Positions 13,312 to 38,199 of a DNA stretch of 64,000 nt are shown here, one piece after another (the first letter of the stretch is position 1; every line of letters begins with the position of its first letter). Made by a program: the position numbers and the translations under genes. Below the pieces are notes generated by a model. It made no database searches. It was not told where the DNA came from and saw nothing but the letters and a program-made list of their open reading frames with translations. The stretch comes from Verrucomicrobiota bacterium (lineage in GTDB: Bacteria > Verrucomicrobiota > Verrucomicrobiia > Limisphaerales > Palsa-1400). The DNA lies in the NCBI GenBank assembly GCA_049513975.1, contig JBEKVM010000001.1, forward strand, positions 7,836 to 71,835. The letters run 5' to 3'.

Positions 13312-13638
13312 AAATATGGAGGCCAATAAAATGAACTGGGCGGAGGTCCGGCGGCTTGCGAAACTGCCGGAATATCGTAATGTTGCAGAGTGCGTGAAAT
13401 TGGTGAAAGAAGTCGCCGATGAACTCAAAATTAAAAGTCCCTTGCATTCCGATTGAAGGCGCAATCAGCTACGAAGACTGGCTGAAAGGACGACGCCATC
13501 GTCGTGAATTGGGCAACCGGGTCGCCCCCGAAATCCTCCGGCGCCGGAGCAGTTCCAGCGACCGGCGGTTGAAGAAACTGTTCAAGGGCGAACGCGGCCT
13601 GCCCTTCACCCCCACCGAAAAACTTTGAGCGGCAGACA

Positions 13639-13690
13639 TCCTGGGCGACGCGAAACAATTTTTGGCGAAAAAAATTCCGGTGGGATTGTG
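13639..13690 (+). repeat. Second, diverged copy of the hisF 3' end
   Basis: ctgggcgacgcgaaacaatttttggcgaaaaaaattccggtgggattgtga (LGDAKQFLAKKIPVGL*) versus the hisF end at 13258-13311 ([17 protein letters not shown]). Confidence 0.7.
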
Positions 13691-13750
13691 AACACCCCGT
13701 TTGATGAAATCCGCGCCCGGCACAAGATTCCCCGCGGCAAGAAATGAATT

Positions 13751-14219: not shown

Positions 14220-15170
14220 TCACGCCCTGGGATGGGCCTGGTCGTAAGCGCGCTTGAGGCGTTCGGTGGTCAGGTGGGTATAGACCTGCGTCGTCACCAG
14301 GTGCGCGTGGCCGAGCAACTCCTGCACGCTGCGCAAATCGGCCCCGGCATCGAGCAGGTGCGTGGCGAAGCTGTGGCGCAATTTGTGCGGCGTGATTTTT
14401 GGGTCCAGCCCGGCGGCGCGGAGATATATTTTCAAGCGCAACTGCACCGTGCGCGGCGTGAGCGGCGACACTTTATGCGGGCGGGCGAGGAAAACCGGCA
14501 TGGCGCCGGCGGGGTCATAACCCCGGTGTTTCCAATAGGCGCGAATGGCTTCCAGCGCCGGAGCGCCGATGGGCGCAAGCCGTTCCTTTTTTCCCTTGCC
14601 GCGCACGCGCACCAACTGGCCGGGCCAGTCCACATCCTCCGCGCGAAGCTGGCACAACTCGCTCACGCGCAGGCCGCACGAGTAAATCACCTCCAAAATG
14701 GCGGCGTCGCGGAAATACGTGCTCGCCTCCGCCTTCTTTTTCGCTTCCGCTTCGCGCTGCAATTCCTGGCCGGGTGCCCGCAGCAGCTCTTCCAGTTGCG
14801 GCACGGTCAAAAAGCGCGGCAGCCGTTTTTCCCGGGCGGGAAGCGAGAGCTTGCGGATGGGCGAAACGGCGGCGGCGCCATTGCGGATGAGAAACTTGTA
14901 AAAGGAACGCAGCGCGGAGAAGCGGAGTTGCACGGCGGCGCGGCTCAACTGGCCGCGGCCGAGGAAGCGGAGAAAATCCCGGAAATCATCCCGGCCCAGC
15001 GCGTTCCAATCCGGCGGCGCGCGCCGCTGCTGCAGGAACCAGCCGGTGAATTCCAGCAGCGCCTGCCGGTAATTCCTTTCCGTATAAACCGAGGCCCCTT
15101 TTTCGGCGAGAAGATGGCGCAGGAATTTCGAAATCCAAGGATCCATTTTTGGCTCTGGCGGCTCGTTCAT
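14220..15170 (-). CDS. xerC: Tyrosine site-specific recombinase, XerC/XerD type
   Basis: 316 aa. N-terminal SAM-like core-binding domain (YRQALLEFTGWF) and C-terminal R...HKLRHSFATHLL...LGHAHLVTTQVYTH catalytic motifs. No IntI-specific extra segment seen. Confidence 0.8.
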   Translation of the reverse strand: MNEPPEPKMDPWISKFLRHLLAEKGASVYTERNYRQALLEFTGWFLQQRRAPPDWNALGRDDFRDFLRFLGRGQLSRAAVQLRFSALRSFYKFLIRNGAAAVSPIRKLSLPAREKRLPRFLTVPQLEELLRAPGQELQREAEAKKKAEASTYFRDAAILEVIYSCGLRVSELCQLRAEDVDWPGQLVRVRGKGKKERLAPIGAPALEAIRAYWKHRGYDPAGAMPVFLARPHKVSPLTPRTVQLRLKIYLRAAGLDPKITPHKLRHSFATHLLDAGADLRSVQELLGHAHLVTTQVYTHLTTERLKRAYDQAHPRA

Positions 15171-18154: not shown

Positions 18155-19630
18155 TCACGGCTGCGGGGCGGGCGGCGCGTAATAGTCAATCATTCTTTGC
18201 AAGGCCCATTTGCAAACGGCGCAAAACTGGTCGTTTGGCCGCATGGCGTTCATGATGCAGTTTTCCTGCGAGCGATACATGCCGGTTTTCAGATACCCCG
18301 CGCCCTCGAAGGCGCCGACGCGGTCGGGCAAGGCGGCGATTTTGGCCTGGATCTCAGCCTGGCGCGCCTTGACGCCGGCGTCCAGGGCCTGGAGCTGGGC
18401 GTCGCTCATGCCGTTGGTAAGATTGCGCAATTCCTGCCGCAGCGCGGTGATCGCCGTCCGGGCGGGCGGGGTGGGCAGGGCGACTCCGGGGGTGAGGAGC
18501 GCTTTCCATTTGATGTTGGCGGGGTCGAGCATTTCGGTGATGTTCGGATCATTGGGTTCGACGCCTTTGGGGTACATGTCATTGTAGGAGACGTTGCCCT
18601 GGTATTCGTCGGCGAGGAAGGCAAAGGCGTGGCCGAGTTCATGGATGAAGACCAACTGGCTGCGCTGGTTGTCCACGGAAGTGATGCAATAATCCAGGCA
18701 GATGCTGCCGCCGCCGTAGCGCGTCGTATTGACAAGAACGATGATGGTGTCGTAAGGCACCTGGGCGGCCATGCGGTGCATGGCAAAGCTGTCCTGCACC
18801 AGCAGGTAACGGTCTTCCTCGAAGGAATTGTAGGAGGCGTTGAGGCTGGTGTTTTTGTAACGGCGCTGCAGCGGTTCGTCCATGCCCCGCTCCGGCGAAG
18901 CGCGGAAAACGGCGTTGATGTTGAATCTGTCCTTGTTGGTCTTGTAAGGCTCCATGCTGAAGAGGAAGGCGGTCATGCGCTCGGCGTCCTTTTTGAATTT
19001 GTCCTTGTCCTCCGCGGTGTAGCCCTCGGCCAAAAAAACGAAGTCCACCTTGTCGTGCGGATCGCCGGTTTTCTGGATTTCAAACACGGTGTCGCCCATG
19101 TTCACATTTTCGCGGATGATATGATAATCATTGGGATCCACCGTGGTGATGTAAAGGGGAACGGGCACATTGAACTTGTCGCGGCGTTCCACCACCACCA
19201 GCACCGGTTTTTTCGGACAAGGAAAGCGCAAGACCGTCTCGTAGGCGCGCTTGACGCCGTCCAGGGCGGGCTGGGTGGTTTTGTATTCGGCGAACAGGGG
19301 ATTGAAGCCGCGGGAATAAATGAGGCGGTTGGAGTTCCTGTCATAGACCTTCAGGCAATAATGCCCTATTTCAAAGGGCTGGATGAGCGAGCGCGGATTC
19401 TCCGGCCAGACCGGCTCCTGATAAATGGCGTGTTCGGTGATGATTTCATTGGTGGCGTCGCCGATCTCGTAAATCTCCAGGCGCAAGGCGGCGTTGGTAA
19501 AGTAATCGTCGAACACCACGGGGGCCGGTTGGGCCGCCACCCGGACGGCCAGACCGCAAAGCAGGGCCAGGACAACCAGCAGGGACGTTGTGGCGCCGGG
19601 AATCCGGCGGTTTGGGATGTTTTTCATCAT
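18155..19630 (-). CDS. Peptidase M64 (IgA peptidase-like) family protein
   Basis: FIHELGHAFAFLADEY zinc motif. Signal peptide MMKNIPNRRIPGATTSLLVVLALLCGLAV. Confidence 0.8.
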   Translation of the reverse strand: MMKNIPNRRIPGATTSLLVVLALLCGLAVRVAAQPAPVVFDDYFTNAALRLEIYEIGDATNEIITEHAIYQEPVWPENPRSLIQPFEIGHYCLKVYDRNSNRLIYSRGFNPLFAEYKTTQPALDGVKRAYETVLRFPCPKKPVLVVVERRDKFNVPVPLYITTVDPNDYHIIRENVNMGDTVFEIQKTGDPHDKVDFVFLAEGYTAEDKDKFKKDAERMTAFLFSMEPYKTNKDRFNINAVFRASPERGMDEPLQRRYKNTSLNASYNSFEEDRYLLVQDSFAMHRMAAQVPYDTIIVLVNTTRYGGGSICLDYCITSVDNQRSQLVFIHELGHAFAFLADEYQGNVSYNDMYPKGVEPNDPNITEMLDPANIKWKALLTPGVALPTPPARTAITALRQELRNLTNGMSDAQLQALDAGVKARQAEIQAKIAALPDRVGAFEGAGYLKTGMYRSQENCIMNAMRPNDQFCAVCKWALQRMIDYYAPPAPQP

Positions 19631-19772
19631 AAAACTCAGTTCACAGGCCAGGGCCACGGCCAGGGCCGGCGCCCTGCCGCGGGCAAGTTCATCCGGTTAC
19701 AAAAGCAGACTTGCCGCCCCCCGTCGAGATTTTTCCCGCGGCCCAAATTTTCGCCCGGGGCCGATTCAAAAT
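19542..19772. repeat. Segment A: M64 gene 5' end plus upstream region, duplicated at 21601-21825
   Basis: Aligned by eye over about 225 bp, with a few substitutions and one short indel. Confidence 0.85.
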
Positions 19773-19925
19773 GTCCCCCCAACCCTTCATTGCCCTAGAG
19801 GTGAGGGCGGTGGAATCCATGTTGGGAAGGGTGTTTGCACGCAGCCACAGGGCGCGAGCTGGAACCCGGCGACTTCACGACGAGGCTGACTGGTGGGCCT
19901 TCGGCGACTGTGAGAGGTTTGAGGC

Positions 19926-20050
19926 AAAATCAACAATGGGATTTTTTAACAGGAGGGCGCAGAGGAAGCAGAGGTTTTCTTTTTTCGTTCTCCGTTTTCT
20001 CCGTTCTCTCCTGTTCCAAATTCCTGCGTTCAAGCTCCGCGTTGGTTTTT
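19926..20050 (+). repeat. Mosaic-leader sub-module Q (partial P end plus Q) joined directly to H1
   Basis: aaaatcaacaatgggattttttaacaggagggcgcagaggaagcagaggttttcttttttcgttctccgttttctccgttctctcctgttccaaattcctgcgttcaagctccgcgttgg matches 23120-23235 and 25335-25450. Confidence 0.8.
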
Positions 20051-20052
20051 GA

Positions 20053-20135
20053 GGCTCCACCTTAACTTTGCCCAATTTGGATTTGAATCATGGCCGTCTT
20101 TGAGCAGCATGGGAGAAAGTTATAGTTTGAGTCCT
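20053..20135 (+). repeat. H1: ~84-bp imperfect-palindrome element
   Basis: Core cttaactttgcccaatttggatttgaatcatggccgtctttgagcagcatgggagaaagttatag. The outer arms are not self-complementary. Confidence 0.85.
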
Positions 20136-20165
20136 TCGCTGGTTTGACTCTTTTCAGGCACATCA

Positions 20166-20699
20166 TCATTTGTTAAGTCTCTCTTTGAAGAACAGCCGAG
20201 TTGTTTTTACTGGATGTTGAAGGAACAGTATCTTCCACGGATACACTTTTCTATCAGGATCAACACCGATACTCAACAGCCATTGCCGCCGAAACTCCAA
20301 TTGCTCCTTAAGAGAGCAAGGGTCAACATCCTGACCTGAGTCAAATATTGACACCAAATCCTTCATATCGCCCTTCTTTCCAAGATAACATCTATATGCC
20401 ATTTCGCCATTTCCCATGCTTGCACCCATTCCTGATGATGACACATTTCTACTATTACCATAGCACCGCAATAATTGACTTTCCTTTTCCAACTCACTGC
20501 GGATATAATTTAATGCAACTAAATAACTGGTGGCGGCACGGGAAATCTCGCGATTCGCGAATCGTAATGTTATCTGCACGAGCTTGGTATCGTCCGGGCT
20601 TTGGCCCCACAGCAGTAATGTGCCTCCCGTAATTGACTTGTCAGACATCAAGATATCAACGGGTTTCGCAATCGGCTCAGTAATAGTTTGAGATTTCAT
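20166..20699 (-). CDS. Hypothetical protein, low-GC orphan, antisense to the array
   Basis: 177 aa from the ATG at 20699 (the track's 180-aa version uses a TTG start). Two hand-counted 60-nt lines are 37% and 42% GC. No family recognised. Confidence 0.55.
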   Translation of the reverse strand: MKSQTITEPIAKPVDILMSDKSITGGTLLLWGQSPDDTKLVQITLRFANREISRAATSYLVALNYIRSELEKESQLLRCYGNSRNVSSSGMGASMGNGEMAYRCYLGKKGDMKDLVSIFDSGQDVDPCSLKEQLEFRRQWLLSIGVDPDRKVYPWKILFLQHPVKTTRLFFKERLNK

Positions 20700-20778
20700 A
20701 CCAATCAAGTTATTTCTTGCAAGTAGGAGCTGCTGATGCTGTTGTGCTTCCAGATGTTCCGATGCAAACGTTCAAAGC

Positions 20779-20860
20779 GGTCAGACCATAACTGTGCCCA
20801 ATTTGGACTTGAATCATGGCCGTCATTGAGCACGATCGGACAAAGTTATAGTTTGATCCC
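20779..20860 (+). repeat. H2: imperfect-palindrome element
   Basis: ggtcagaccataactgtgcccaatttggacttgaatcatggccgtcattgagcacgatcggacaaagttatagtttgatcc. Confidence 0.85.
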
Positions 20861-20920
20861 TTCGACGTCGCATCCACTTTTTAAGCGTGATTATGAGGCA
20901 TTTTTACCGCCATTCGCCGC

Positions 20921-21184
20921 CGCAAGCAAGGTTTTTCGCATCCATCAAATGGGTCAAACTATCGGGCGTGTTGCCCAAATCGAAAGCTGGAGAAAAGCGT
21001 TGCCGGACGGGTCCGATGTCTGCATGAATTTGTGAACAGAAGCAGGTTTGGATAATGCTGCGACCGAGGACGGTCGCACTCCGCGAACACAGGCACCTCG
21101 CTGTCCGCTCGCCGGCCTAATCGGCCAAAATCAACAAACGGATATTTTAACAGGAGGGCGCAGAGGAAACAGAGGTTTTCTTTC
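20921..21184 (+). repeat. Mosaic-leader sub-modules S-tail plus P (third copy)
   Basis: cgcaagcaaggtttttcgcatccatcaaa...ttgcccaaatcgaaagctggagaaaagcgttgccggacgggtccgatgtctgcatgaatttgtgaacag...ataatgctgcgaccgaggacggtcgcactccg aligns with 22921-23170 and 25165-25380. Confidence 0.85.
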
Positions 21185-21442
21185 TGCTTCCTCGACGTTT
21201 TCAGTGGACGCCCCCGGAAGGGTGAAAGGATTGGGAGCGCGACCGTCCCGGTCGCTGTGGGGCGCGTCTCGCGCCCCACCTCTTGGCCGATTGCTTCCCA
21301 TAGGCTCAGTTTCGGACGGGCCGCCTTCAAGGAGAAGCTCAGCCGGAATGTGTTTGGCGGGACGCCAAACACGGCGTGCGAGACGCACGCGCTCCCCGAA
21401 TCAGCCGTTGCCCGATCAGATCCACTGAAAACGTCGGGGAAC
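21185..21442. mobile_element. MITE-like 258-bp insertion interrupting the P/Q junction
   Basis: Terminal inverted repeats ttcctcgacgttttcagtgga (21188-21208) and tccactgaaaacgtcggggaa (21420-21440), with a 16-bp perfect core. Flanked by gttttctttc / gttttcttttc direct repeats. Absent from the two other P-Q copies. Confidence 0.7.
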
Positions 21443-21514
21443 CTGTTTTCTTTTCTCGTTCTCCGTTCTCTCCCGTTCAAGATTCCTGCGTTGGAACTCC
21501 GCGTTAGATTTTCA
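21443..21514 (+). repeat. Mosaic-leader sub-module Q joined directly to H3
   Basis: gttttcttttctcgttctccgttctctcccgttcaagattcctgcgttggaactccgcgttagatttt. Confidence 0.8.
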
Positions 21515-21594
21515 GGGTCACCCTTAACTTTGCCCAAATTGGACTTGAATCATGGCCGTCTTTGAGCAGGATGGGACAAAATTATGGGTGACCC
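21515..21594 (+). repeat. H3: imperfect-palindrome element
   Basis: gggtcacccttaactttgcccaaattggacttgaatcatggccgtctttgagcaggatgggacaaaattatgggtgaccc. The arms are self-complementary. Confidence 0.85.
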
Positions 21595-21600
21595 GTTTGA

Positions 21601-21825
21601 CGGACGGCCAGACCGCAAAGCAGGGCCAGGACAACCAGCAGGGACGTTGTGGCGCCGGGAATCCGGCGGTTTGGGATGCTTTTTATCATAAAACTCAGTT
21701 CACAGGGCATTGCCGGGGCCGGCGCCCTCCCGCGGGCAAGTTCATCCGGTTACAAAAGCAGACTTGCCGGCCCCCGTCGAGATTTTTCACGCGGGCCAAA
21801 TTCTCGCCCGGGGCCGATTCAAAAG
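21601..21825. repeat. Segment A': duplicate of the M64 5' end/upstream region, with an orphan 34-codon signal-peptide remnant on the minus strand
   Basis: Minus-strand ATG at about 21690 gives MIKSIPNRRIPGATTSLLVVLALLCGLAVRQTGHP*, which terminates at the H3 boundary. Confidence 0.85.
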
Positions 21826-21983
21826 AAGACTCGCCAATATCGCATGGCAAAAAGCGGTCACTTCTTCCCTCTCCCTTCCGCCGCAATCATGTTCAGCTTG
21901 GCGATCACCCGGAACCCACGCCGAAAAAGGTCAAGCCTTGCAAGTCGGCAGTTACCAAAAATAAAAATGCCCAAGAATAAAAA

Positions 21984-22012
21984 TTGACAAACCGGTTCAA
22001 TGTGCTGATATT
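21984..22012 (+). promoter_or_regulatory. Candidate sigma70-type promoter for the Ig-like gene
   Basis: TTGACA (21984-21989), a 17-nt spacer, then GATATT (22007-12), in an AT-rich stretch about 100 nt upstream of the start. Confidence 0.4.
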
Positions 22013-22108
22013 TGCGCCTGGAGGGTCAAAGGCAAAATTTAAAATGAAACACGAATCTCATCCAGGTTGCTGCCTTGGCATTTGCTTTCGGCAACCAAAT
22101 CCAGTTAC

Positions 22109-22705
22109 ATGCTTATGAAGACACGTCAACGCGCCCGTCTGCTTCTCACCATCCTCATGTCAGTGGCCTCGCTTGCCATTTCCACGGTTCGCCTGCGGGC
22201 GCAACCCACCATCGCAGCGCAACCAACAAACCAATCGGTTCTGTTGGGCGGCGCCGGCAGTTTTTCGGTCGCCGCCACCGGAACGGGGAGCCTTTCGTAT
22301 GTGTGGCAATTCGAGGGCACCAATACCACCAACACCGGGCCCTCCCTGTCCATTCCGGTGGTTCACCACGCCGATGTCGGATCTTACGATGTGATCGTCA
22401 CCGATCAAACCGGTAGCGTGACCAGCTCCGTTGTTAAGCTAACCCCTGCCGGACCGCGTCCGATCATCACACTCGTCACCAATACGCCGGACTACAATGT
22501 GATTGACCTGCAATACACTGTGGCGCCCAACGGCCAATTCCAACTGTTTGTTGCCCATGATTTGACGCCGCCCATTCAATGGTTTGGGCCGGCCTACATC
22601 CGCCAGTCCGGTGGCGCCAGCAACTACAACTGGAGCTACGCCCGGGGCACCAACTACACCGAATACTATCCCAAGACTTTTTGGCGCCTGGATCCCTATC
22701 CCTGA
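22109..22705 (+). CDS. Exported Ig-like (I-set type) domain protein
   Basis: Signal MLMKTRQRARLLLTILMSVASLAISTVRLRA. PTIAAQPTNQSVLLGGAGSFSVAATGTGSLSYVWQF...ADVGSYDVIVTD is a typical Ig I-set pattern. C-terminus ...FWRLDPYP. Confidence 0.65.
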   Translation: MLMKTRQRARLLLTILMSVASLAISTVRLRAQPTIAAQPTNQSVLLGGAGSFSVAATGTGSLSYVWQFEGTNTTNTGPSLSIPVVHHADVGSYDVIVTDQTGSVTSSVVKLTPAGPRPIITLVTNTPDYNVIDLQYTVAPNGQFQLFVAHDLTPPIQWFGPAYIRQSGGASNYNWSYARGTNYTEYYPKTFWRLDPYP

Positions 22706-22725
22706 CCGTCAAAGGGCTCATCAAA

Positions 22726-22808
22726 GGCGTCAAACCGTAACTTTTCCCAATTTGGACTTGAATCATGGCCGTCTTTGAGCAGGATGGGACAAAGTTAAGG
22801 GGGACCCC
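22726..22808 (+). repeat. H4: imperfect-palindrome element, 20 nt after the stop of the Ig-like gene
   Basis: ggcgtcaaaccgtaacttttcccaatttggacttgaatcatggccgtctttgagcaggatgggacaaagttaagggggacccc. Its right outer arm matches the reverse complement of the H3 left arm (13/14) rather than its own left arm. Confidence 0.85.
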
Positions 22809-23368
22809 TTCAACAGCGAGACGGAGCCGTTGCGGTTTGAAGCGCTTGAAACCAAGACTGACCGGCGAGGGCGCCGGTCAGCACACGCGAGGGCGCGTAT
22901 GCTCCCCGCGCATTCCCCTTCGCAAGCAAAGTTTTTCGCATCCATCAAACTATAGGGCGTGCTGCCCGAATCGAAAGCTGGAGAAAAGCATTGCCGGACG
23001 GGTCCGATGTCTGCAGGAATTTGTGAACAGAAGCAGGTCTGGATAATGCTGCGACCGAGGACGGTCGCACTCCGCGAACACAGGCACTTCGCTGTCCGCT
23101 CCCCGGCTTAATCGGCCAAAATCAACAAACGGATTTTTAACAGGAGCGCGCAGAGGAAACAAAGGTTTTCTTTTTTCGTTCTCCGTTTTCTCCGTTGTCT
23201 CCTGTTCAAAATTCCTGCGTTAAAGCTCCGCGTTGGATTTAATTGGCAAGAGCTACTGATTGAGCCGTTCGAGGAAAAAGGACTTGCAAACCTGTGGAGA
23301 AGGAGGAGAATCACGAAAAAGGCCCACCCTGGTCGTGGGCAAGAATCCAAATGGGAAATGTCAAAAAA
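22809..23368 (+). repeat. Mosaic non-coding leader S-P-Q-R, copy 1 (~560 bp)
   Basis: Collinear and over 90% identical by eye with 25089-25585, apart from an 85-bp segment missing in copy 2. Confidence 0.85.
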
Positions 23369-23401
23369 TGCTTCACCACCATCGCAGGAGGGCGCCGCCA
23401 A

Positions 23402-24721
23402 ATGACGCTTCGGAAATTATCGAGTTGTTGTTTCATTGGTGTAGCGGGGATGATTTTCGCCAATGTGGGATTGGCCGATGAATTGCAAAGTGCGTCCCGT
23501 CCGATCGTTTTAAAGGCCGCCCACATTTTCGATTCTGTCTCCGGAAAATTGGAGGAGCCGGGCGTCGTCGTCGTCGCGGGCACAAAAATCCAGGCTGTCG
23601 GCAGCGGCGCCAAGATTCCCGGCGAGGCGAAGGTGATTGACCTCGGCGATGCCACATTGATGCCCGGTTTTATTGATGCCCACGTTCATCTGTCGTTCGA
23701 GATGAGCGACAAATGGTATGAAGATTGGTACGCGGGGATGATGCGCTTTCCTGCCGAGCAGGCGCTGTACGGCGCGCACTATGCCAAGGTCACCCTCGAG
23801 GCGGGTATAACTACGGTCCGCGATCTCGGCTCGGATGACTATGTATCGCTGGGACTGAGAAACGCGATCAAAGCCGGCATGATCCCGGGTCCGCGGATGC
23901 TGGTGGCGAATTACGCGATCGGAGCGACCGGTGGCCACGCCGACCAGGACCCCGTGCCGCCGCACCGGCTCGCCCCGGCAGGTCCCATCCAAGGAGTGTG
24001 TAACGGCCCCGATGAATGCCGGGCTGCCGTGCGCTACCAGATGAAATATGGCGCTGACGTCATTAAATTCATGCCTTCGGGTGGAGTTCTTTCCCTTTCC
24101 GATCCCGTGGACACACCCGAACTTACCCAGGAGGAAATGAACGCAATCGTGTCCGAAGCCCATGCCTGGAAACGCAAAGTGGCCGCCCACTGCCACGGCG
24201 ATCTGGCGGCCAAAATGGCCATTGCCGCCGGTGTGGACTCCATCGAGCACGGCACCTTCCTGCAGGATGACACGCTGCGGGAAATGAAGAACAAGCATGT
24301 GTACTTGGTTCCTACGCTCTTCGCTCTTTATTGGGTGGGCCAGAAGGCCGACACTTACCCGCCGGTCATCGCTGAAAAGGCTCGAGCAGCATCCGCGCAG
24401 AGCCAGAAGATGTTTCAGCACGCGGTCGAAATTGGGGTTCCGATTGCGATGGGCACGGATGCCGCGGTCGAGCCGCACGGCATGAACGCACGGGAGTTTT
24501 CGCTGATGACGGCTAACGGGCTGGAGCCAGCTCAGGCGCTGCTGGCGGGCACGGCGAAAGGCGCCGACTTGCTTGGCATCTCTGATCAAACAGGAACTCT
24601 ACAGCCAGGGAAGTATGCCGACATCGTGGCTGTTGCCGGCAATCCTCTTCTCAACATCAAAACCACGGAGCATCCGATACTGGTAATGAAGGAAGGGGTC
24701 ATCTACATGGGCAGCAAGTAA
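23402..24721 (+). CDS. Exported amidohydrolase-superfamily metallo-hydrolase
   Basis: Signal MTLRKLSSCCFIGVAGMIFANVGLA. LMPGFIDAHVHL metal-binding motif, AHCHG, and GTDA near the C-terminus. An alternative in-frame start lies at 23351. Confidence 0.85.
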   Translation: MTLRKLSSCCFIGVAGMIFANVGLADELQSASRPIVLKAAHIFDSVSGKLEEPGVVVVAGTKIQAVGSGAKIPGEAKVIDLGDATLMPGFIDAHVHLSFEMSDKWYEDWYAGMMRFPAEQALYGAHYAKVTLEAGITTVRDLGSDDYVSLGLRNAIKAGMIPGPRMLVANYAIGATGGHADQDPVPPHRLAPAGPIQGVCNGPDECRAAVRYQMKYGADVIKFMPSGGVLSLSDPVDTPELTQEEMNAIVSEAHAWKRKVAAHCHGDLAAKMAIAAGVDSIEHGTFLQDDTLREMKNKHVYLVPTLFALYWVGQKADTYPPVIAEKARAASAQSQKMFQHAVEIGVPIAMGTDAAVEPHGMNAREFSLMTANGLEPAQALLAGTAKGADLLGISDQTGTLQPGKYADIVAVAGNPLLNIKTTEHPILVMKEGVIYMGSK

Positions 24722-24743
24722 CTGCCCGAGGGGATCTATCAAA

Positions 24744-24825
24744 GGGTTCAAACCATAACTTTGCCCAAATTGGACTTGAATCATGGCCGTCTTTGAGGAG
24801 GATGGGACGATGCTGTTTTTTGACC
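24744..24825 (+). repeat. H5: imperfect-palindrome element with a degenerate right arm, 22 nt after the amidohydrolase stop
   Basis: gggttcaaaccataactttgcccaaattggacttgaatcatggccgtctttgaggaggatgggacgatgctgttttttgacc. Confidence 0.8.
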
Positions 24826-24859
24826 GCCTTGCCTGCAAGGCCAGGCGTCGGTCATGGAT

Positions 24860-24950
24860 GGTAGGGCGCGCAGTCCTCTGCGCGCCGCACGACGGTAGTG
24901 CGACGTTGATTCCAAAGTCCGACGGCGGGCAGCGGAGTGCCCGCCCTACC
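24860..24950. repeat. REP-like element (family B, long form)
   Basis: ggtagggcgcgcagtcctctgcgcgccgc...gggcagcggagtgcccgccctacc. Confidence 0.8.
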
Positions 24951-25004
24951 TTTCCCCGCCCACTCATTTTTGTTGAATTTTGGGCGGTGTCTTAATTGGT
25001 CCAA

Positions 25005-25088
25005 GTGGTCAAACCATAACTTTGCCCAAATTGGACTTGAATCATGGCCGTCTTTGAGGAGGATGGGACACAGTTATCGGTTGACCCC
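25005..25088 (+). repeat. H6: imperfect-palindrome element
   Basis: gtggtcaaaccataactttgcccaaattggacttgaatcatggccgtctttgaggaggatgggacacagttatcggttgacccc. Confidence 0.85.
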
Positions 25089-25585
25089 CTTCAGGAGCCC
25101 CCGCCGACCACACAGCGAGATGGAGCCGTTGCGGTTTGAAGCGCTTGAAACCAAGACTGACCGGCGAGGGCGTGCTGCCCGAATCGAAAGCTGGAGAAAA
25201 GCATTGCCGGACGGGTCCGATGTCTGCATGAGTTTGTGAACAGAAGCAGGTTTGGATAATGCTGCGACCGAGGACGGTCGCACTCCGCGAACACAGGCAC
25301 TTCGCTGTCCGCTCGCCGGCCTAATCGGCCAAAATCAGCAAACGGATTTTTAACAGGAGCGCGCAGAGGAAACAGAGGTTTTCTTTTTTCGTTCTCCGTT
25401 TTCTCCGTTGTCTCCTGTTCAATATTCCTGCGTTAAAGCTCCGCGTTGGATTTAATTGGCAAGAGCTACTGATTGAGCCGTTCGAGGAAAAAGGACTTGC
25501 AAATCTGTGGAGCAGGAAGAAAATCACGAAAAAGGCCCACGCAGTTCGCGGGCGAGAATCAAACTGGGAAATCCCAGAAAAACCT
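25089..25585 (+). repeat. Mosaic non-coding leader S'-P-Q-R, copy 2 (~500 bp)
   Basis: Same order of sub-modules as copy 1. Ends exactly at the ATG of the FG-GAP gene. Confidence 0.85.
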
Positions 25586-27766
25586 ATGTCACACAAACTT
25601 TTCGAGGCGCTCTTGGCCCTGGCGGTGGGACTATTGATTTCGGTCAGCACGTTTCGCGCCGCCGCTCAGGCGCCCTTCACCAACCAGCCGGTCCCCGCGT
25701 TTCTCCAAGTGCCCGTTGCGTTCGGGAGCGCGGCGTGGGGTGATTACGACAACGATGGCAGGCTCGACTTGCTTCTTATCGGCACGACGAATGTGGCCGT
25801 CCCGGTCGGACAGCTTGAGTATGGGTTGGTGCAGTTGTGGCACAACGATGGCAACGGCCAGTTCCATTTGGTCTCCATCCCCGCGCCCGGAGTGCTGGCA
25901 GGCACGGTGGCGTGGGTGGATTACGACAACGACGGATACCTGGATTTCATGATAGCGGGTGAGCCTGACGATGGCTCTTCGCCCGTGGTCCTGTTGTACC
26001 ACAATCAACACGATGGCACATTCACGAATGTGCCGATTCCGGGCCTGGTTTCCTCCATATTGACCGGCCAGTACTGGGGAACACCGTTGTTTTCGTGGGG
26101 GGATTATGATCACGACGGGCGGCCGGACCTTGCGATTATATCTTCCAGTACCAACTCGTATCCCGGGCTCGTGCAGGTGTGGCATAACGATGGCGGCGGC
26201 GCTTTTTCCCAGGTTCCGCTATCATTGACAATCCCAAACGGCTCGACCGTGCAATGGGCAGACATGGATGGCGACGGCTGGATTGACCTGGTTGTTGCCG
26301 GCGCCAGCACGAATGGCGGAAGCGTGTTTCCAGTGGAGATATTCCACAACAATTTCACCAACAATGCCTACCCGCTATTCACGCCGGTGACGTCAATTCT
26401 TCTTGGCCCAAACGCTTCGGCTGCCAAGACATTCAGTCTGGCCATTGCGGACTACAATAACGACGGGCTTCTGGATCTGGTGGCGGGGATTGGTCTCCAG
26501 TCCGGCGGCAACGCCAGCGCGAGTCTCGAATTCAACGTTGGCGCCAACCAATATACCAACAACGGAACGATGATCCCCGGCTCTTTAGGCAAGGTTTTTT
26601 TTGCGGTTGGCGATTACGACAATGATGGGCTTCCTGACCTCGCGGAAATGGACTTCAGTTCCGGCGGTTTCGCAGGATTACTGCTCAATAACGGTGACGA
26701 CAGCTTCAGCACGAACGGGCTTGCGGGTCTGCCGGCAGGGAGCGACCCATTCGTGACTTTTGCAGATTACGACAATGACGGGCGGTTGGACCTGTTTACC
26801 ATGTCAGGCGCCAGTCCACTGCAGCTTTGGCACAATCAGACGCCAGTGACCAACACGCCGCCAACGGCGCCGACCGGGCTGTATGCGATTCCGTTCACGA
26901 ATGGCGCGCAGCTTTCGTGGAATCCGGCCACGGACGCGCAGACGCCTTCTCCAGGGCTGAGCTACAACTTGCGCGTTGGCACTGTTCCCGGCACGGACAA
27001 TTACATCGCAGCCGAGGCGGACCTGTCCACCGGCTGGCGGCGCGTCGTGCAACGGGGAGCGATCCAGGGGACGAACTACGAGCTGACGCAGATGCCACCC
27101 GGAATTTATTACTGGAGCGTGCAAGCGATGGATGCCGCTTTCGCCGGCGGAGCTTTTGCGGCGGAAGGCACGTTCGCCATTCCTGGACTTGCGATCACGC
27201 CGGCCTACAGCGATAACATCACCGCCACTTCAGCGGTCCTGTATTGCTCTGTCAGCAGCGGAGGGACGACCGCGACCGGGTATTTCCAGTGGGGCTTGAC
27301 CACTTCTTACGGGAACACGACGGCGGCACAGTCGCTGGGATCGAGCATCGGCACGGCGCCGTTTCATCAGGGCATTACCGGATTGCAACCGGCGACCTAT
27401 TATCACTTCCGGGGGGTTGTTACCAACGGCGCGACGAGCGTTTATAGTCCTGATACCGTTCTTTACACGGACCCTACGATACTCATTGGCGATTTGACCG
27501 GGAGCGGGCAAATTAGCGGCAGCGAAGCCGGAATGGTGCTGTCGAATTACTTTGTTTCCAGCGGCCTTGTGCTGACAAACCCCGCGTCGCTGGGCGGCGG
27601 AAACTTCCAGTTTGGCCTTGGCGCGATATCGGGGTGGAGCTTCAACGTGCAGGCCAGTTCGGATCTGACGACGTGGAGCAACCTGCCAACGAGCGCGACG
27701 CCGTTCTACGAGTTTTTCGACCCGGAGGCAACCAATTCGCCGTACCGCTTTTATCGGGTGCGCTGA
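25586..27766 (+). CDS. Exported FG-GAP/VCBS repeat protein with FN3-like domains
   Basis: Signal peptide. At least 7 Ca-binding FG-GAP motifs (WGDYDNDGRLDLL, WVDYDNDGYLDF, WGDYDHDGRPDLA, WADMDGDGWIDLV, IADYNNDGLLDLV, VGDYDNDGLPDLA, FADYDNDGRLDLF). C-terminus ...SPYRFYRVR. Confidence 0.85.
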   Translation: MSHKLFEALLALAVGLLISVSTFRAAAQAPFTNQPVPAFLQVPVAFGSAAWGDYDNDGRLDLLLIGTTNVAVPVGQLEYGLVQLWHNDGNGQFHLVSIPAPGVLAGTVAWVDYDNDGYLDFMIAGEPDDGSSPVVLLYHNQHDGTFTNVPIPGLVSSILTGQYWGTPLFSWGDYDHDGRPDLAIISSSTNSYPGLVQVWHNDGGGAFSQVPLSLTIPNGSTVQWADMDGDGWIDLVVAGASTNGGSVFPVEIFHNNFTNNAYPLFTPVTSILLGPNASAAKTFSLAIADYNNDGLLDLVAGIGLQSGGNASASLEFNVGANQYTNNGTMIPGSLGKVFFAVGDYDNDGLPDLAEMDFSSGGFAGLLLNNGDDSFSTNGLAGLPAGSDPFVTFADYDNDGRLDLFTMSGASPLQLWHNQTPVTNTPPTAPTGLYAIPFTNGAQLSWNPATDAQTPSPGLSYNLRVGTVPGTDNYIAAEADLSTGWRRVVQRGAIQGTNYELTQMPPGIYYWSVQAMDAAFAGGAFAAEGTFAIPGLAITPAYSDNITATSAVLYCSVSSGGTTATGYFQWGLTTSYGNTTAAQSLGSSIGTAPFHQGITGLQPATYYHFRGVVTNGATSVYSPDTVLYTDPTILIGDLTGSGQISGSEAGMVLSNYFVSSGLVLTNPASLGGGNFQFGLGAISGWSFNVQASSDLTTWSNLPTSATPFYEFFDPEATNSPYRFYRVR

Positions 27767-27864
27767 GTGCAGCAGGAGTGGCGCGGCGCGAGGACTTGGA
27801 GAGTTTGTCAGCAATTGTTGGCCAGTCGCAATGCCGTTGAATATTTCGAACTGAGTTCGTCAAC

Positions 27865-27948
27865 GGGGTCAAACTAAAACTTTGCCCAAATTGGACTTGA
27901 ATCATGGCCGTCTTTGAGGAGGATGGGAAAAAGTTATGGTTTGACCCC
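27865..27948 (+). repeat. H7: imperfect-palindrome element
   Basis: ggggtcaaactaaaactttgcccaaattggacttgaatcatggccgtctttgaggaggatgggaaaaagttatggtttgacccc. Confidence 0.85.
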
Positions 27949-27966
27949 TACGATGACCCCTACGAC

Positions 27967-28062
27967 GAGGAAAATGGACTTGCAAGTCTGTGGAGAAGGA
28001 GGAGAATCGCGAAAAAGGCCCACCGTGGCCGTGGGCAAGAATCGAAATGGGAAATGTCAAAT
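27967..28062 (+). repeat. Leader sub-module R, copy 3 (R only)
   Basis: cgaggaaaatggacttgcaagtctgtggagaaggaggagaatcgcgaaaaaggcccaccgtggccgtgggcaagaatcgaaatgggaaatgtcaaa. Confidence 0.85.
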
Positions 28063-28069
28063 TGACCCC

Positions 28070-29302
28070 TTGCGGCAAAAAATCTTAACGACTTTGGCTG
28101 TCGTGCTGGTCGCAGGGCTTGTCGCGGGCATTATTGCGTCGCGGCGGGCTTCCCCAACATTGCCGGCTCCTCTCCTCCTGCCCATGAGCCTGGGCAGGAG
28201 CAATGCGGCGTTGGCGGTTTATCCCGGTGCCACTGGGGCCATGTTTGTCTTGCCCGATGGATCGCTGTGGCAGTGGGGAACCGGCGTTAAACATCCGGAT
28301 GGACTTCCAGAACTTTTCGACGATCGGCATCGTTGGGCCAAAGCCTTCAACCGGTCAGGTGGCTGGCTGGCGCAGGAGACTAATGGCAATGTTTGGGAGC
28401 TGCGGCCAGGCCCAAGGCATTTGGTTCCCTTGTCCGTCACAAATCAGGATTGGGTCGAATTGACCGGAGGGGTGATGTACACTTTAGGGCTGCAAAGGGA
28501 CGGAACCATTCTGGGTTGGGAGTTGAATTCTGGCCCGGCGGGCAAAACTAATGCGATCACCGAAGTGGCAACGAATTTCCTTTGGCGCGGCATTTCCGCG
28601 TCTGGACCATTTTGCATTGGCGTGTCGAGCGATGGAATGCTTTGGACTTGGGAACGCCGGGGATTGTCTCCTTTGACCTTTACACAGCCGCTGCAGGCGA
28701 CATCGAATACCAATTGGATCGGCGTGGCTGGCGGACAATATGCGTGGTCCAGTTCGGGCGAATTGTGGGGAGCACCCGTTGCCCGCCTCAATTCTCCAAA
28801 AGCGATTCAGGGACGCTTTGCCTTGGGATCCATTGTGCATGAGATTCGTTCTGACGGCAGTCTTTGGGCGATCGGAGCGCCAGGGCCGCCCACGTCCCGG
28901 CCAATGGCCGGCGGAGGCATTTCCACTTCGTTTGGCGTTTCTGGCAGGTCGGTATCTGGCTCTCGTGCTGCTCTGAATGGGCGTGGCCCAGCGCCTGGTT
29001 TTGGCAAATTTCAATGGCGGAGGGTAGGAGAACGGTCGGACTGGGTTTCGATCTGGGGCTCGGACGGAACCTATTATGGCCTGACTTCCGATAGCACGGT
29101 TTGGGTTTGGGGAGCCGATTGGGGGCAGAAGCCAATTCAAACATCGCAGGACACGCTTGCCCACGCATGGGATGAGATTCGCGATCATATTCAAGCTTCG
29201 CCGGGCGGAGCCGGGCCAATGGCGGGACGAGCAATGATGCTGACTCAGCCATATCAAGACGCACCTCGCCCGTTAATGCGCTTCAAGCCAGTCAGCAAGT
29301 GA
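28070..29302 (+). CDS. Membrane-anchored RCC1-like beta-propeller repeat protein
   Basis: Repeats DGSLWQWG, DGTILGWE, DGMLWTWE, SGELWGAP, DGSLWAIG, DSTVWVWG. The start is uncertain. TTG at 28070 gives (M)RQKILTTLAVVLVAGLVAGIIASRR; ATG at 28184 is the alternative. The track start at 27914 reads through the non-coding R and H7. Confidence 0.65.
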   Translation: MRQKILTTLAVVLVAGLVAGIIASRRASPTLPAPLLLPMSLGRSNAALAVYPGATGAMFVLPDGSLWQWGTGVKHPDGLPELFDDRHRWAKAFNRSGGWLAQETNGNVWELRPGPRHLVPLSVTNQDWVELTGGVMYTLGLQRDGTILGWELNSGPAGKTNAITEVATNFLWRGISASGPFCIGVSSDGMLWTWERRGLSPLTFTQPLQATSNTNWIGVAGGQYAWSSSGELWGAPVARLNSPKAIQGRFALGSIVHEIRSDGSLWAIGAPGPPTSRPMAGGGISTSFGVSGRSVSGSRAALNGRGPAPGFGKFQWRRVGERSDWVSIWGSDGTYYGLTSDSTVWVWGADWGQKPIQTSQDTLAHAWDEIRDHIQASPGGAGPMAGRAMMLTQPYQDAPRPLMRFKPVSK

Positions 29303-29304
29303 GC

Positions 29305-29431
29305 GTTAACAGCCCGTTAAAAAAGGCCCGGTGAGGCACCGGGCCTACAACAGATGCACGCTTTGCGAGGGAAATGTAGGCCGCGTGCCCTCACGCGGCG
29401 GGAGTGGAGCCTTTTTTTGACGGGCTGTTAA
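29305..29431. repeat. 22-bp inverted repeats bracketing a terminator-like stem and a REP
   Basis: gttaacagcccgttaaaaaagg / cctttttttgacgggctgttaa. Inner perfect stem ggcccggtg-agg-caccgggcc at 29325-29345. Confidence 0.75.
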
Positions 29432-29436
29432 AGTCA

Positions 29437-29520
29437 AAGGGGTCACCATGACTTTGCCCAAATAGGACTGGAATCATGGCCGTCTTTGAGCCGGATGGGA
29501 CAAAGCTATAGTTTGACTTT
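29437..29520 (+). repeat. H8: imperfect-palindrome element, most diverged
   Basis: aaggggtcaccatgactttgcccaaataggactggaatcatggccgtctttgagccggatgggacaaagctatagtttgacttt. Confidence 0.8.
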
Positions 29521-29583
29521 GAAGTTATACTTTGATGACCCCTTTGACCTTTGACCCCTTTGACGGGTCCAAAAAGGGAAAGG

Positions 29584-30438
29584 TCAGAGGTTTTGCGCGT
29601 AGGCGATGAACTTGCGGTAGCCGGCCAGAATGGACTGCAAGGCGGCCGCAAAAGCATACTCCGTCAGAAACGCCGGACGGCCTTTGGGCGCCTCCAGGAT
29701 GATTTCAAACGGGCGCGGCCGGACCACCGGCGGGGCGCTGAGAACGCCGGGGAAGGAATCGCGAACGACGGAGTTGCGGGCCGGGAAACCATCAATCAGC
29801 CCCCGTTTGTCCAGCGGCAGAAACGCATCCGCCGCCTTGAGCGCCGGCTCGATGAGATTCCTGGCCAGGGTCGCTCCGTTGACAATGCCGTAGAATCCGT
29901 CACTGGTGTCATCCACATGCAAGGATATGATTCCATGAAAGGAATGCGAGACCAGTTCCGCCTGCAACAAACCCACTTCCGGCTCGCTGGACTTGCTCCA
30001 GAATTCACGGTTCAAATCCTTCCCCCGGCGCGACTGGCGGGTGTTGTCCTCGAAGCCGGTCGGATTGCAAACCGGATAGATCGTCAGGCAGTAACCCGCG
30101 GCCAATTCGGCGTAGGTTTCCAAATACTGTAGAAATCGAACCGCGGCATAGGCCCCTTCCGATTCATCCCCGTGAATCGCGGCAAAGATTCCGATCCGAA
30201 TCGGCGTGTCTCCGCTCTTGGGGCCGATGAACAGATAACGCGGGAGAACATAGCATTCGCCGTCCACTTCAAAGCGCGCGTCGCGATTGACGAGGAGGTT
30301 TGGCGAATGGGCCGCAAGCTGCTCCAAGGGCGCCAACAAGTCGGCGATGGAGCGCCGGGTCACCTCTCTAAGTTTTCCAGTCTTTGCCACGGCGGCGGGC
30401 CGGACCACACTCAATGAATTGCTCATCATGTTCTTCAT
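29584..30438 (-). CDS. M14-type zinc carboxypeptidase / succinylglutamate desuccinylase-aspartoacylase family protein
   Basis: IGIFAAIHGDESEG (Zn ligands H, E), YPVCNPTGFE, DLNREF, GIISLHVD. Confidence 0.75.
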   Translation of the reverse strand: MKNMMSNSLSVVRPAAVAKTGKLREVTRRSIADLLAPLEQLAAHSPNLLVNRDARFEVDGECYVLPRYLFIGPKSGDTPIRIGIFAAIHGDESEGAYAAVRFLQYLETYAELAAGYCLTIYPVCNPTGFEDNTRQSRRGKDLNREFWSKSSEPEVGLLQAELVSHSFHGIISLHVDDTSDGFYGIVNGATLARNLIEPALKAADAFLPLDKRGLIDGFPARNSVVRDSFPGVLSAPPVVRPRPFEIILEAPKGRPAFLTEYAFAAALQSILAGYRKFIAYAQNL

Positions 30439-30439
30439 T

Positions 30440-30600
30440 CAAACGACGTCACAATACAACAAATCTCTACTATGTCAATAGATTTAGTTATCTTTCTGTC
30501 TAAAACATTGTAATATCCTGTACAACAAACATTTACAAATATTAAAATCATATCAAGAATATGATTCTGCAATAATTACCGCCATATCAGACAACATTAT
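30440..30600. promoter_or_regulatory. AT-rich island upstream of the M14 gene, with short palindromes
   Basis: One hand-counted 60-nt line is 25% GC. Palindromes atcatatcaagaatatgat and ctatgtcaatag. Confidence 0.5.
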
Positions 30601-30655
30601 TAAACCGTCAAAGACCTTCGATGGGGAGCGGCCGCGCCTGGCGGGCAGTGGTCGG

Positions 30656-30785
30656 CTCCTCCGCCGACCACACAGCCCGATGGAGCCGTTGCGGTTTGAA
30701 GCGCTTGAGACCAAGACTGACCGGCGAGGGCGCCGGTCAGCACACGCGAGGGCGCGTATGCTCCCCGCGCATTCCCCTTCGCAAG
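30656..30785 (+). repeat. Leader sub-module S, terminal copy upstream of the DUF4175-like gene
   Basis: ctcctccgccgaccacacagcccgatggagccgttgcggtttgaagcgcttgagaccaagactgaccggcgagggcgccggtcagcacacgcgagggcgcgtatgctccccgcgcattccccttcgcaag aligns with 22815-22925 and 25095-25165. Confidence 0.85.
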
Positions 30786-30884
30786 AACAGTGTCGAGCTG
30801 CGCCAAATGCCGGTTTTTGTTGAATTTTGCAACTTGAACGTTGGGGTTTACCGTCTAACCTAATGTGTGCGCCGCGCACGCGTC

Positions 30885-34081: not shown

Positions 34082-34131
34082 GGGAGCACACGCGCCCCCG
34101 CGTGTCGCGGGCCGCGCCTCGCGGCCCGCAT
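34082..34131. repeat. REP-like double hairpin (family C) between convergent genes
   Basis: gggagcacacgcgcccccgcgtgtcgcgggccgcgcctcgcggcccgcat. Confidence 0.8.
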
Positions 34132-34150
34132 TCGGCGCGCAGCGCCGACA

Positions 34151-34534
34151 CTACATCGCCCCGTCTGCGAAATCACTTCCCGCGGCGGCGGCCGGCTTTG
34201 CCGCCTGACATTTCTTCTCCGACTTCAAACGGCGCAAGATCGCCTCGGCAGTAAAGTGTTCCAGCCATAACCGCTCGCGCGTGGCGGTGGCCCATTCGTT
34301 TGGCTCGTTGCCATAAACCAGGTCAATGTCGCGGATGCTTTGCAGACTCTCCTCCATGTCGTCCCTCAACCGCCGCTCCGCATCCGGCAGGTCGCGCATC
34401 GCCGCCACGGAACGCTCCACAAACCCCGCGTCCACCAGACCCGGCCTCGCCCAATCCCCGGCTGGAATGTGAAACGGACCGCGCGGCGGCGGCAAGGTGA
34501 ATTCCAGTTGTGCCGCATTTTTCATGTTTTCCAA
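34151..34534 (-). CDS. Hypothetical 127-aa protein, translationally coupled to the upstream RM enzyme gene
   Basis: Its start overlaps the methyltransferase gene stop by 13 nt. No recognisable motif. Confidence 0.5.
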   Translation of the reverse strand: MENMKNAAQLEFTLPPPRGPFHIPAGDWARPGLVDAGFVERSVAAMRDLPDAERRLRDDMEESLQSIRDIDLVYGNEPNEWATATRERLWLEHFTAEAILRRLKSEKKCQAAKPAAAAGSDFADGAM

Positions 34535-38004: not shown

Positions 38005-38199
38005 GTCTTCCGCAAATGATTCTGAAATTCCCGCTTCATGTCCACGCAAAAGCGCGTCCTTCCCCTTCTACGGTCGCATTTAATCGTCCCCCCCATCTTT
38101 TTTGCTGCTTTCCCCGGCGCGCCGGCCTAAAATGTGAAAGTGAGGTTGAAGAAATGTGGTTTCAACGTAGCTTAAGTTTTGCAGGCTGAGAATTGAATC

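Follow-up and report, generated by a model that had tools for sequence, protein, structure and literature searches.

An integron-like layout formed by a locus-confined palindromic repeat in a hypervariable island of a Verrucomicrobiota genome

The attC sites of integrons carry an R'' box (RYYYAAC) and an R' box (GTTRRRY), wherein the AAC/GTT triplet is conserved in all sites, and conservation is often high among the sites of a single chromosomal integron (PMC5027507). The defining features of attC used for comparison in this study were taken from that source, and also include an imperfect hairpin of 57 to 141 bp, an unpaired central spacer of 5 to 6 nt in each arm, two to three bases that are extrahelical in the bottom strand, on its L'' side, and whose first and last members are a 6-bp stem apart, a bottom strand that folds better and holds more G:T pairs, and exchange at one fixed crossover (G|TT). 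Here we examine a 64,000-nt stretch of DNA from a Verrucomicrobiota bacterium (contig JBEKVM010000001.1, positions 7,836 to 71,835), termed the window, in which eight copies of a palindromic repeat called H are interspersed among single genes. H is a young element of about 100 bp that is almost confined to a hypervariable, non-coding-rich island between an M64 peptidase gene and a DUF4175-like gene. The cassette-like dynamics of this island are real, but the integron interpretation fails when H is compared with attC feature by feature. H is best filed as a private addition to the class of bacterial intergenic palindromic repeats, located in a flexible genomic island. On balance, and with modest confidence, we view it as a lineage-specific, locus-confined repeat that was spread by local duplication and that provides portable homology for homologous and illegitimate recombination.

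Comparison of H with attC sites

A search of the window with a 32-nt segment of the H core yields exactly eight matches, all on the plus strand (starting at 20067, 20793, 21529, 22742, 24760, 25021, 27881 and 29453), where none is expected by chance. This result bears out the eight same-orientation copies reported in a preliminary description of this locus, and the same eight form a single family (D1) in a repeat search of the window. The extents of the copies were assigned with a profile built on 14 copies, and a scan of both strands of the 64-kb window with this profile recovers no H beyond the eight found at 20048 to 29521. Thus, eight copies lie within 9.5 kb and none in the remaining 54 kb.

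Each H is about 90 to 105 nt in length and the consensus is palindromic. In an alignment of the 14 copies, a near-invariant and asymmetric core of about 60 nt is composed of AAC-TTTGCCCA, a loop of 35 to 36 nt, and TGGGaCAAA-GTT, and every aligned copy has a bulged A in its right arm, as had been proposed. The arms are about 30 nt each (GTCAAAGG-GGTCAAACCATAAC-TTTGCCCA plus its complement), such that the palindrome originally recognized is genuine but longer than had been claimed. These arms are built from iterated (G/A)TCAAA motifs spaced about 7 to 12 bp apart, which run past the core at H4 and H8, and their outer portions vary more than the core does. The mosaic of two outer arm types that had been described reduces to variants that differ by indels of 1 to 2 nt (GGTTTGACC versus GG(G)TGACC). 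Likewise, an all-against-all comparison of the arms reveals no neighbor pattern of the kind expected if the right arm of one copy paired with the left arm of the next. A small open reading frame (ORF) within H was considered and rejected, as the frame that starts at the loop ATG is different from copy to copy.

The layout of the array does resemble that of integrons, wherein same-orientation imperfect palindromes of about 100 bp lie between single, often orphan genes, some units are gene-less, some genes are reversed, and the gene content of close relatives differs. One gene or none is present in each H-to-H interval and the orientation of H is uniform, in agreement with the cassette-like arrangement first noted. 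Moreover, the H copies are homogeneous within the array, as are the Vibrio cholerae repeats (VCRs), and no integrase is adjacent, as in clusters of attC sites lacking integron-integrases (CALINs). The length and imperfect hairpin of H also fall within the attC range, although this feature is not specific to attC.

The proposal that H is an attC site nevertheless fails with respect to the boxes, the spacer, the strand bias, the integrase and the fixed junction. None of the eight copies matches either the R'' or the R' 7-mer, and no RYYYAAC-N40-130-GTTRRRY pair exists on either strand anywhere in the window. Even the triplets are inconstant, with GTT missing from three of the eight copies (ATT in H3, GCT in H5 and in H8) and AAC missing from H8 (GAC). 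Whereas attC arms are interrupted by an unpaired spacer, the consensus and the folds of H show unbroken pairing from AAC/GTT into TTTGCCCA/TGGGaCAAA, and this pairing extends through and past the supposed boxes. In place of two to three extrahelical bases, H has its single bulged A. The top strand carries this base in its right arm, which for the orientation of the plus-strand genes is the arm opposite to that of the attC extrahelical bases. H units also bear long common leaders of 400 to 650 nt, unlike integron cassettes. Because a CALIN needs at least two genuine attC sites, and H does not behave as one, the array does not count as a CALIN.

No integron integrase (IntI) is encoded in the window. 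The sole tyrosine recombinase scores as XerC/D, with 296 bits for XerC and 116 bits, in two separate stretches, for the integron integrase family (cut-off 265). Xer recombinases act at dif sites, which have two arms around a center of 6 to 8 bp. The H stem does contain CATAA/TTATG, but a two-arm site with such a center is lacking, the Xer gene is also conserved by an island that has no H, and no GC-skew switch marks a replication terminus. A Xer/dif site was therefore rejected.

The preliminary description had presented all eight copies as hairpins. Despite the palindromic consensus, only H3, H7 and H8 fold as single-stranded DNA (ssDNA) better than shuffled sequence (z values of -3.4, -2.8 and -4.6), whereas H1, H2, H4, H5 and H6 do not (z values from +0.95 to -0.95). 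In a pairing test with a hand-specified 24-pair stem and 500 shuffles, 81.5% of the stem cells are paired, compared with 31 to 52% when the partner arm is slid, but the shuffled mean is 81.0% and 191 of the 500 shuffles score as high. Since the observed pairing equals the shuffled value, the palindrome is a feature of the consensus rather than something maintained in each individual copy. The mispairs in the stem comprise 45 that are not wobble pairs, and hence are disruptive on both strands, along with 23 top-strand G.T and 16 A.C (the bottom-strand wobble), which is not the bias expected of attC. Indeed, no consistent bias between the top and bottom strands is evident in the DNA folding energies of the eight copies, and when three copies are folded as RNA, neither strand is consistently preferred. 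RNAalifold, when given the 14 copies, neither recovers the long hairpin nor detects covariation.

Duplication within the island and turnover among relatives

The distribution of H beyond the window was assessed with an exact 20-mer. Among 185,579 species, each represented by one genome, this 20-mer is found in a single organism, a Verrucomicrobiae metagenome-assembled genome (MAG). This relative carries six H copies, five of which are present at the syntenic locus in one orientation. The sixth, on another contig (L002), is the sole H found outside the main locus, and there H, M1 (see below) and a D5-like sequence form a block upstream of a Fic-family gene, with about 110 nt between H and the gene for an IS4-family transposase (DUF4372 plus DDE_Tnp_1). 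A metagenome scan with the 20-mer returned 12 loci, of which eight are this same array at 98 to 100% identity and four (L010, L011, L013 and L014) were discarded as chance matches that lack hairpin context. No match was found in viral and plasmid collections, and the metagenome scan gave no pool of H-linked genes. The rarity of H and its tie to one locus indicate that it is neither a scattered repeat nor part of a wide cassette pool. The hundreds of genome-wide copies that would characterize an ordinary repetitive extragenic palindromic (REP) sequence, as contemplated earlier, are not what is seen.

H is one among several repeat families, all of which are limited to the 19.5 to 31 kb portion of the window. 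Unrelated genes of the island have long leaders in common, which are made of modules named D4, D5 and D6 together with a truncated copy of M1, a miniature inverted-repeat transposable element (MITE). Part of the long leader at 22954 to 23368 recurs at 20907 to 21183. A complete M1 (L002, positions 1750 to 1896) is about 150 nt long, has 23-bp terminal inverted repeats (TATAGGGCGTGTTGCCCAAATCG) and resides in a TA of the H right arm, whereas the window contains three identically truncated copies (20963, 22954 and 25167) that retain the left terminal repeat only. This identical truncation in three leaders is direct evidence for segmental duplication. The H copies themselves share a flank on one side only: D5 on the left of H1 and H3, D4 on the right of H4 and H6, and D6 on the right of H7 and of the relative's copy Ra. 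Flanks held in common speak for duplication rather than for insertion. The clustering and single orientation of H are likewise explained if the repeat was duplicated locally with its leaders. Other fragments are consistent with such events. The right edge of H3 adjoins a duplicated 5' fragment of the M64 gene, and in the relative (L001) a 5' stub of the amidohydrolase gene consists of the leader and the first 20 to 37 codons followed by unrelated DNA. A putative core-less H remnant of the form listed in Table 1 occurs again at about 25454 to 25488.

Contigs of relatives, reached via homologs of the M64 peptidase, reveal three species that keep both flanks of the island while the content between the M64 and DUF4175-like genes is entirely different in each. 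In the window, this interval spans 19775 to 30625 (10.85 kb) and contains six genes. In L015, it is 5.4 kb and holds the amidohydrolase stub, a 317-aa orphan gene, an LRR_5 gene and a DUF1905/OmdA gene, whereas in L028 it is 6.5 kb with seven ORFs that have no clear family matches. Synteny on the right restarts at 30625 relative to L015 or at 30824 relative to L028. The L028 interval has no H and no other repeats, although both flanks and the neighboring Xer gene are conserved. Turnover in the absence of H demonstrates that this interval is a turnover hotspot irrespective of the repeat. Conserved flanks, content that differs wholly in three species, low-GC foreign genes, debris from MITEs and insertion sequences (ISs), and a second variable spot nearby with a restriction enzyme gene are all reminiscent of flexible genomic islands. 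What sets this island apart from an ordinary one is that, in two of the three species, a private direct repeat subdivides it and units are shuffled in a cassette-like manner at the level of strains.

The hypervariability of the interval among related species, as anticipated in the preliminary description, is therefore confirmed, but the breakpoints coincide with H boundaries only in part. Four breakpoints between the window and L015 are located inside the amidohydrolase ORF, at an H left edge, 26 nt into M1, and in D4, such that one of the four is at H and the others are outside. Furthermore, a single type of microhomology junction, GTGCC|GGTGTCAGTCC, marks the start of three units of L015, and one of these units cuts an H right arm. 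This common start is a signature of tandem duplication through illegitimate joining. The segment composed of H5, the spacer and H6 is 91.6% identical between the two species, and its flanks are about 90% identical. This finding indicates that H is not unusually conserved and that it evolves like its surroundings.

Some strains do differ by one H-to-H unit with a junction in H, again as envisaged at the outset. L004 and L005 are identical from the end of an IS481-family element through the left arm and core of H6 to GGATGGGA, after which L004 continues into the H6 right arm and the leader of the FG-GAP gene, whereas L005 proceeds to the right arm of H7 and the gene that follows. The two are a real haplotype pair that is one H-to-H unit apart, with the junction inside H. 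In L003, the left side of H7 is joined to the right side of H5, and the hybrid in which L006 terminates combines the left side of H3 with the right side of H5. The points at which these hybrids switch are not the same. The switch in L005 falls within AGGATGGGA, a 9-nt stretch right before the right arm, whereas that in L006 is somewhere from the left AAC to loop position 66. Both hybrids, as judged from presumed parental alleles, already have the bases of the partner to the left of GTT. In L032, moreover, the crossover is in a D4 repeat rather than in H, and the amidohydrolase gene, H5 and H6 have been removed. Integron exchange uses one fixed crossover, whereas the switch points in H vary and the turnover breakpoints are mostly outside the repeat. 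Crossover points that vary and that involve more than one repeat family are expected from homologous recombination and not from a site-specific enzyme.

An assembly chimera was largely rejected for the L005 hybrid, which has private single-nucleotide polymorphisms in common with L004 up to GGATGGGA; the sequence at the switch common with window-type H7 amounts to just 9 nt. For L006, such a chimera is possible, as the hybrid sits at the end of a contig.

Local duplication and its rivals

In the model we favor, H would have multiplied by local segmental and tandem duplication along with the leader modules, rather than as a freely mobile element or in the form of integron cassettes. Homologous recombination between direct copies of H, and of the other repeats, could then delete, duplicate or reorder the genes in between, and illegitimate, microhomology-mediated joins, perhaps promoted by the long palindrome acting as a fragile site, may add or replace genes. 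The outcome would have the look of a cassette array with no dedicated recombinase. The enzymology is presumably RecA-type recombination and replication slippage, with palindrome fragility as a possible contributor, and H itself probably has no dedicated function, although it could secondarily serve upstream genes as a 3' hairpin.

Several observations weigh against this model. One gene or none per interval, uniform orientation and differing gene sets would also fit a cassette system. Three genes have their ends 20 to 24 nt from an H, a hint that this position was selected. The outer arms are variable but the asymmetric core of 60 nt is near-invariant, a pattern that simple neutral decay does not predict. 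A foreign low-GC stretch is framed by H copies, and the second locus, where H, M1 and a D5-like sequence form a block, has no explanation in local duplication alone. Finally, the parental alleles behind the hybrid H copies are presumed ones, and the genome-wide census of H outside the window was made with an exact 20-mer.

The alternative that survives best, though we judge it unlikely, is that H is an RNA 3' hairpin, either a REP-like stabilizer of mRNA or a terminator or insulator, that was copied along with genes and leaders. H4 and H5 begin 20 to 22 nt past stop codons and the end of H1 is 24 nt from the stop of a minus-strand orphan gene. Distances of 20, 22, 98 and 134 nt given earlier for four plus-strand genes agree with the ORF table and the sequence. 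As RNA, intact copies are very stable hairpins, and that of H7 reaches -40 kcal/mol (z of -3.1). However, five of the eight copies fold no better than shuffled sequence, changes in the stem are uncompensated, and G.U pairs are not favored on the transcribed strand. Promoter and terminator scans are blank inside H, no T-run follows any H, and Rfam 15 yields no match in the whole window at the gathering threshold and only chance-level matches at a permissive threshold in the 19.0 to 31.5 kb region (for example, a SorX-like terminator at 25.9 bits against a threshold of 46.6). The orientation of H is also fixed whatever the direction of the neighboring gene, and two intervals have no gene at all. 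H does share with REPs and bacterial interspersed mosaic elements (BIMEs) an intergenic palindromic form, a frequent position just past stop codons and a possible role as a recombination substrate. REPs, however, are 20 to 40 nt in length and are dispersed in tens to hundreds of copies, whereas H is about 100 nt and has fewer than about 10 copies at one locus in one orientation. In addition, neither a RAYT nor an IS200/IS605 gene turned up in the window, and no HUH-type transposase is present among the ORFs scanned near the array.

Next in rank, and doubtful, is the view that H is a non-autonomous transposon of the MITE type whose transposase is encoded elsewhere and which has a strong local insertion preference. 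Like Correia elements, enterobacterial repetitive intergenic consensus (ERIC) sequences, repeat units of pneumococcus (RUPs) and the Tn3-derived inverted-repeat miniature elements (TIMEs), H is lineage-specific and carries inverted arms at its ends, and it is of similar size (about 100 nt). Each arm is about 30 nt long and the center between them is unique. Two true MITEs as well as IS elements are present in the same island, and the copy at the second locus is near an IS4-family element. However, the tested boundaries show no target-site duplication and inspection reveals no clean empty site. H is represented by very few copies in one orientation, essentially at one locus rather than dispersed, and copies have flanks in common. 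No matching parent IS was found. The IS4 element was rejected in this role because its ends are unlike the H arms, and Tn3-like GGGGTC ends with a 5-bp duplication were not seen.

We consider it improbable that H belongs to an integron-like or new hairpin-specific cassette system, wherein a recombinase encoded elsewhere, or Xer acting on a folded strand, moves single-gene units at H. The content of the intervals, the common orientation of all copies, the constant bulged A and the low-GC stretch between H copies are in accord with such a system, as is the fact that the gene content behind the same repeat is wholly different in two species. Haplotypes one H-to-H unit apart have been noted above, and L003 and L005 together suggest a reordered unit. 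The uniformity of H is also in keeping with it, as attC sites frequently show strong conservation inside a single chromosomal integron (PMC5027507). Against this, the attC boxes are matched in none of eight copies, three of eight are without GTT, no spacer exists, and the single bulge is in the wrong arm. Neither strand is favored and stem changes are uncompensated. The window encodes no IntI, and the Xer gene is conserved by the H-free L028 island. Junction positions differ from one another and lie to the left of GTT, and most between-species breakpoints are outside H. The leaders of 400 to 650 nt and the lack of an H-linked gene pool in metagenomes are also unexpected. An equally slim chance attends the broader proposition that H is the site of an undescribed hairpin or palindrome recombination system that moves single-gene units with their leaders in Verrucomicrobia.

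Least probable of all is that H is a protein-binding site acting at the DNA level, either operator or architectural, that regulates island genes through iterated TCAAA/TTTGA half-sites, for although the (G/A)TCAAA motifs run beyond the core at H4 and H8 and occur H-less at 30606 to 30630 in both species, and sequence is conserved with no structural covariation, no candidate regulator was identified, the promoter scan gives nothing consistent, and the motif-bearing arms are the least conserved part of H.

Features of the island and implications

The coordinates of H copies, leader modules and genes are collected in Table 1. The gene labels M64 peptidase, Ig-like, amidohydrolase, FG-GAP and XerC/D-like, as assigned in the preliminary description, are supported, whereas the RCC1-like label is not, as this product has no Pfam match. 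The H2-H3 interval, although described as gene-free, is filled with transposon debris.

Table 1. Coordinates of H copies, other repeats and genes in the window.
Feature	Position	Strand	Remarks
H1	20048-20142	+	After D5 module; 24 nt from stop of minus-strand orphan gene; fold z +0.09
H2	20771-20870	+	Found in core and profile searches; fold z -0.5
H3	21514-21605	+	Left flank D5 in common with H1; fold z -3.4
H4	22719-22818	+	20 nt past Ig-like gene; right flank D4 in common with H6
H5	24738-24839	+	22 nt past amidohydrolase gene; orthologous to relative's copy Rd; fold z +0.95
H6	24997-25095	+	Orthologous to relative's copy Re
H7	27857-27957	+	Best-kept palindrome; D6 module directly after; fold z -2.8
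H8	29433-29521	+	Between convergent genes; fold z -4.6
H remnant	23241-23275	+	H6-type left flank TTAATTGGCAAGAG and right-arm relic TGATTGAGCC, core gone; putative, assigned by reading the sequence
Short palindrome CGTCAAAGACCTTCGATG	30606-30630	+	Start of D4; outermost H arm motifs with no H between; also in relative
D4 leader module	22810-22949	+	Further copies 25089-25172 and 30625-30785; tail only at 20911-20949
D5 leader module	19925-20049	+	Further copies 23117-23253 and 25330-25466; split copy 21126-21183 plus 21446-21511
D6 leader module	27966-28061	+	Further copies 23270-23365 and 25483-25578; each with minus-strand terminator-like hairpin
Long leader (truncated M1, D5, H remnant, D6)	22954-23368	+	94.7% identical to 25167-25582
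M2, MITE-like insertion	21184-21445		Inside D5 copy; 21-bp terminal inverted repeats 21188-21208 and 21421-21441
M64 gene stub (about 30 codons plus promoter region)	21601-21824	-	93% identical to 19542-19771; begins at H3 edge
XerC/D-type tyrosine recombinase gene	14220-15170	-	Sole tyrosine recombinase in window
M64 peptidase gene	18155-19630	-	Conserved left flank; synteny with two other species stops at about 19747-19775
Orphan gene	20166-20699	-	177-180 aa; 43% GC; no family match
Ig-like gene	22115-22705	+	Label supported
Amidohydrolase gene	23351-24721	+	Relative keeps just leader and first 20-37 codons
FG-GAP repeat gene	25586-27766	+	Its unit is missing at this position in L005 haplotype
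353-aa gene (formerly RCC1-like)	28241-29302	+	No Pfam match
AstE/AspA-like (M14-type) gene	29584-30438	-	Upstream region 27-30% GC
Right flank gene, about 1065 aa	30867-34079	+	Conserved; orthologue has weak DUF4175 match

Individual H copies depart from the consensus in different ways. The right arm of H5 is decayed (GCTGTTTTTTGACC), and the right side of H8 is prolonged to about 29570 by additional TTTGAC-type repeats. The low-GC stretch mentioned above extends from about 19925 to about 20975 and includes D5, H1, the orphan gene and H2.

Other repeats and mobile elements are found near or between the H copies. M2 apparently has TTTTCTTT on either side. An IS481-family element encoding a 394-aa rve-type transposase is located at about 24936 in the H5-H6 spacer, and is strain-specific, being carried by L003, L004 and L005. 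The outer flanks around this element differ between L003 and L004, pointing either to two copies of the IS or to some larger rearrangement. GC-rich inverted repeats unlike H are present in gene-free intervals at 24860 to 24950 and 21233 to 21396 (for example, GGTAGGGCGCGCAGTCCTCTGCGCGCCG ... CGGCGGGCAGCGGAGTGCCCGCCCTACC), and the H5-H6 spacer with its GC-rich inverted repeat is kept in both species. Minus-strand terminator-like hairpins with T-runs occur at 23322 to 23340, 25535 to 25553, 28018 to 28036 and 29324 to 29346. Three of these are inside D6 leaders of plus-strand genes, and the fourth is beyond H8, downstream of the AstE-like gene.

Around the array, the region upstream of the AstE/AspA-like gene (30440 to 30620) is 27 to 30% GC in a genome of 60% GC, and this AT-rich segment contains the best sigma-70-like promoter match of the region. 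The second variable spot, just past the DUF4175-like gene, is a 4-kb insertion relative to a sister species (34082 to 38130) that carries the gene for a Type ISP restriction-modification enzyme of 1160 aa. A gap of about 430 nt (13318 to 13747) interrupts the otherwise continuous alignment with the sister species, between genes that lie upstream of the Xer gene.

If H were after all the site of an undescribed recombination system, it would be functionally analogous to the integron but would have a site grammar of its own, served by a recombinase encoded elsewhere or by a co-opted Xer, and the H-bounded presence, absence and reordering of units among peat strains would be the footprint of that system. 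A second kind of cassette platform would then exist. In the reading we favor, the locus is an example of how an integron-like picture can arise with no integron, from a private repeat that is duplicated locally and from ordinary recombination in a turnover hotspot, and it advises caution when attC-like arrays and CALINs are called from structure in phyla that have been little studied. Peat Verrucomicrobia with co-existing haplotypes offer a compact natural system for measuring repeat-mediated gene shuffling.

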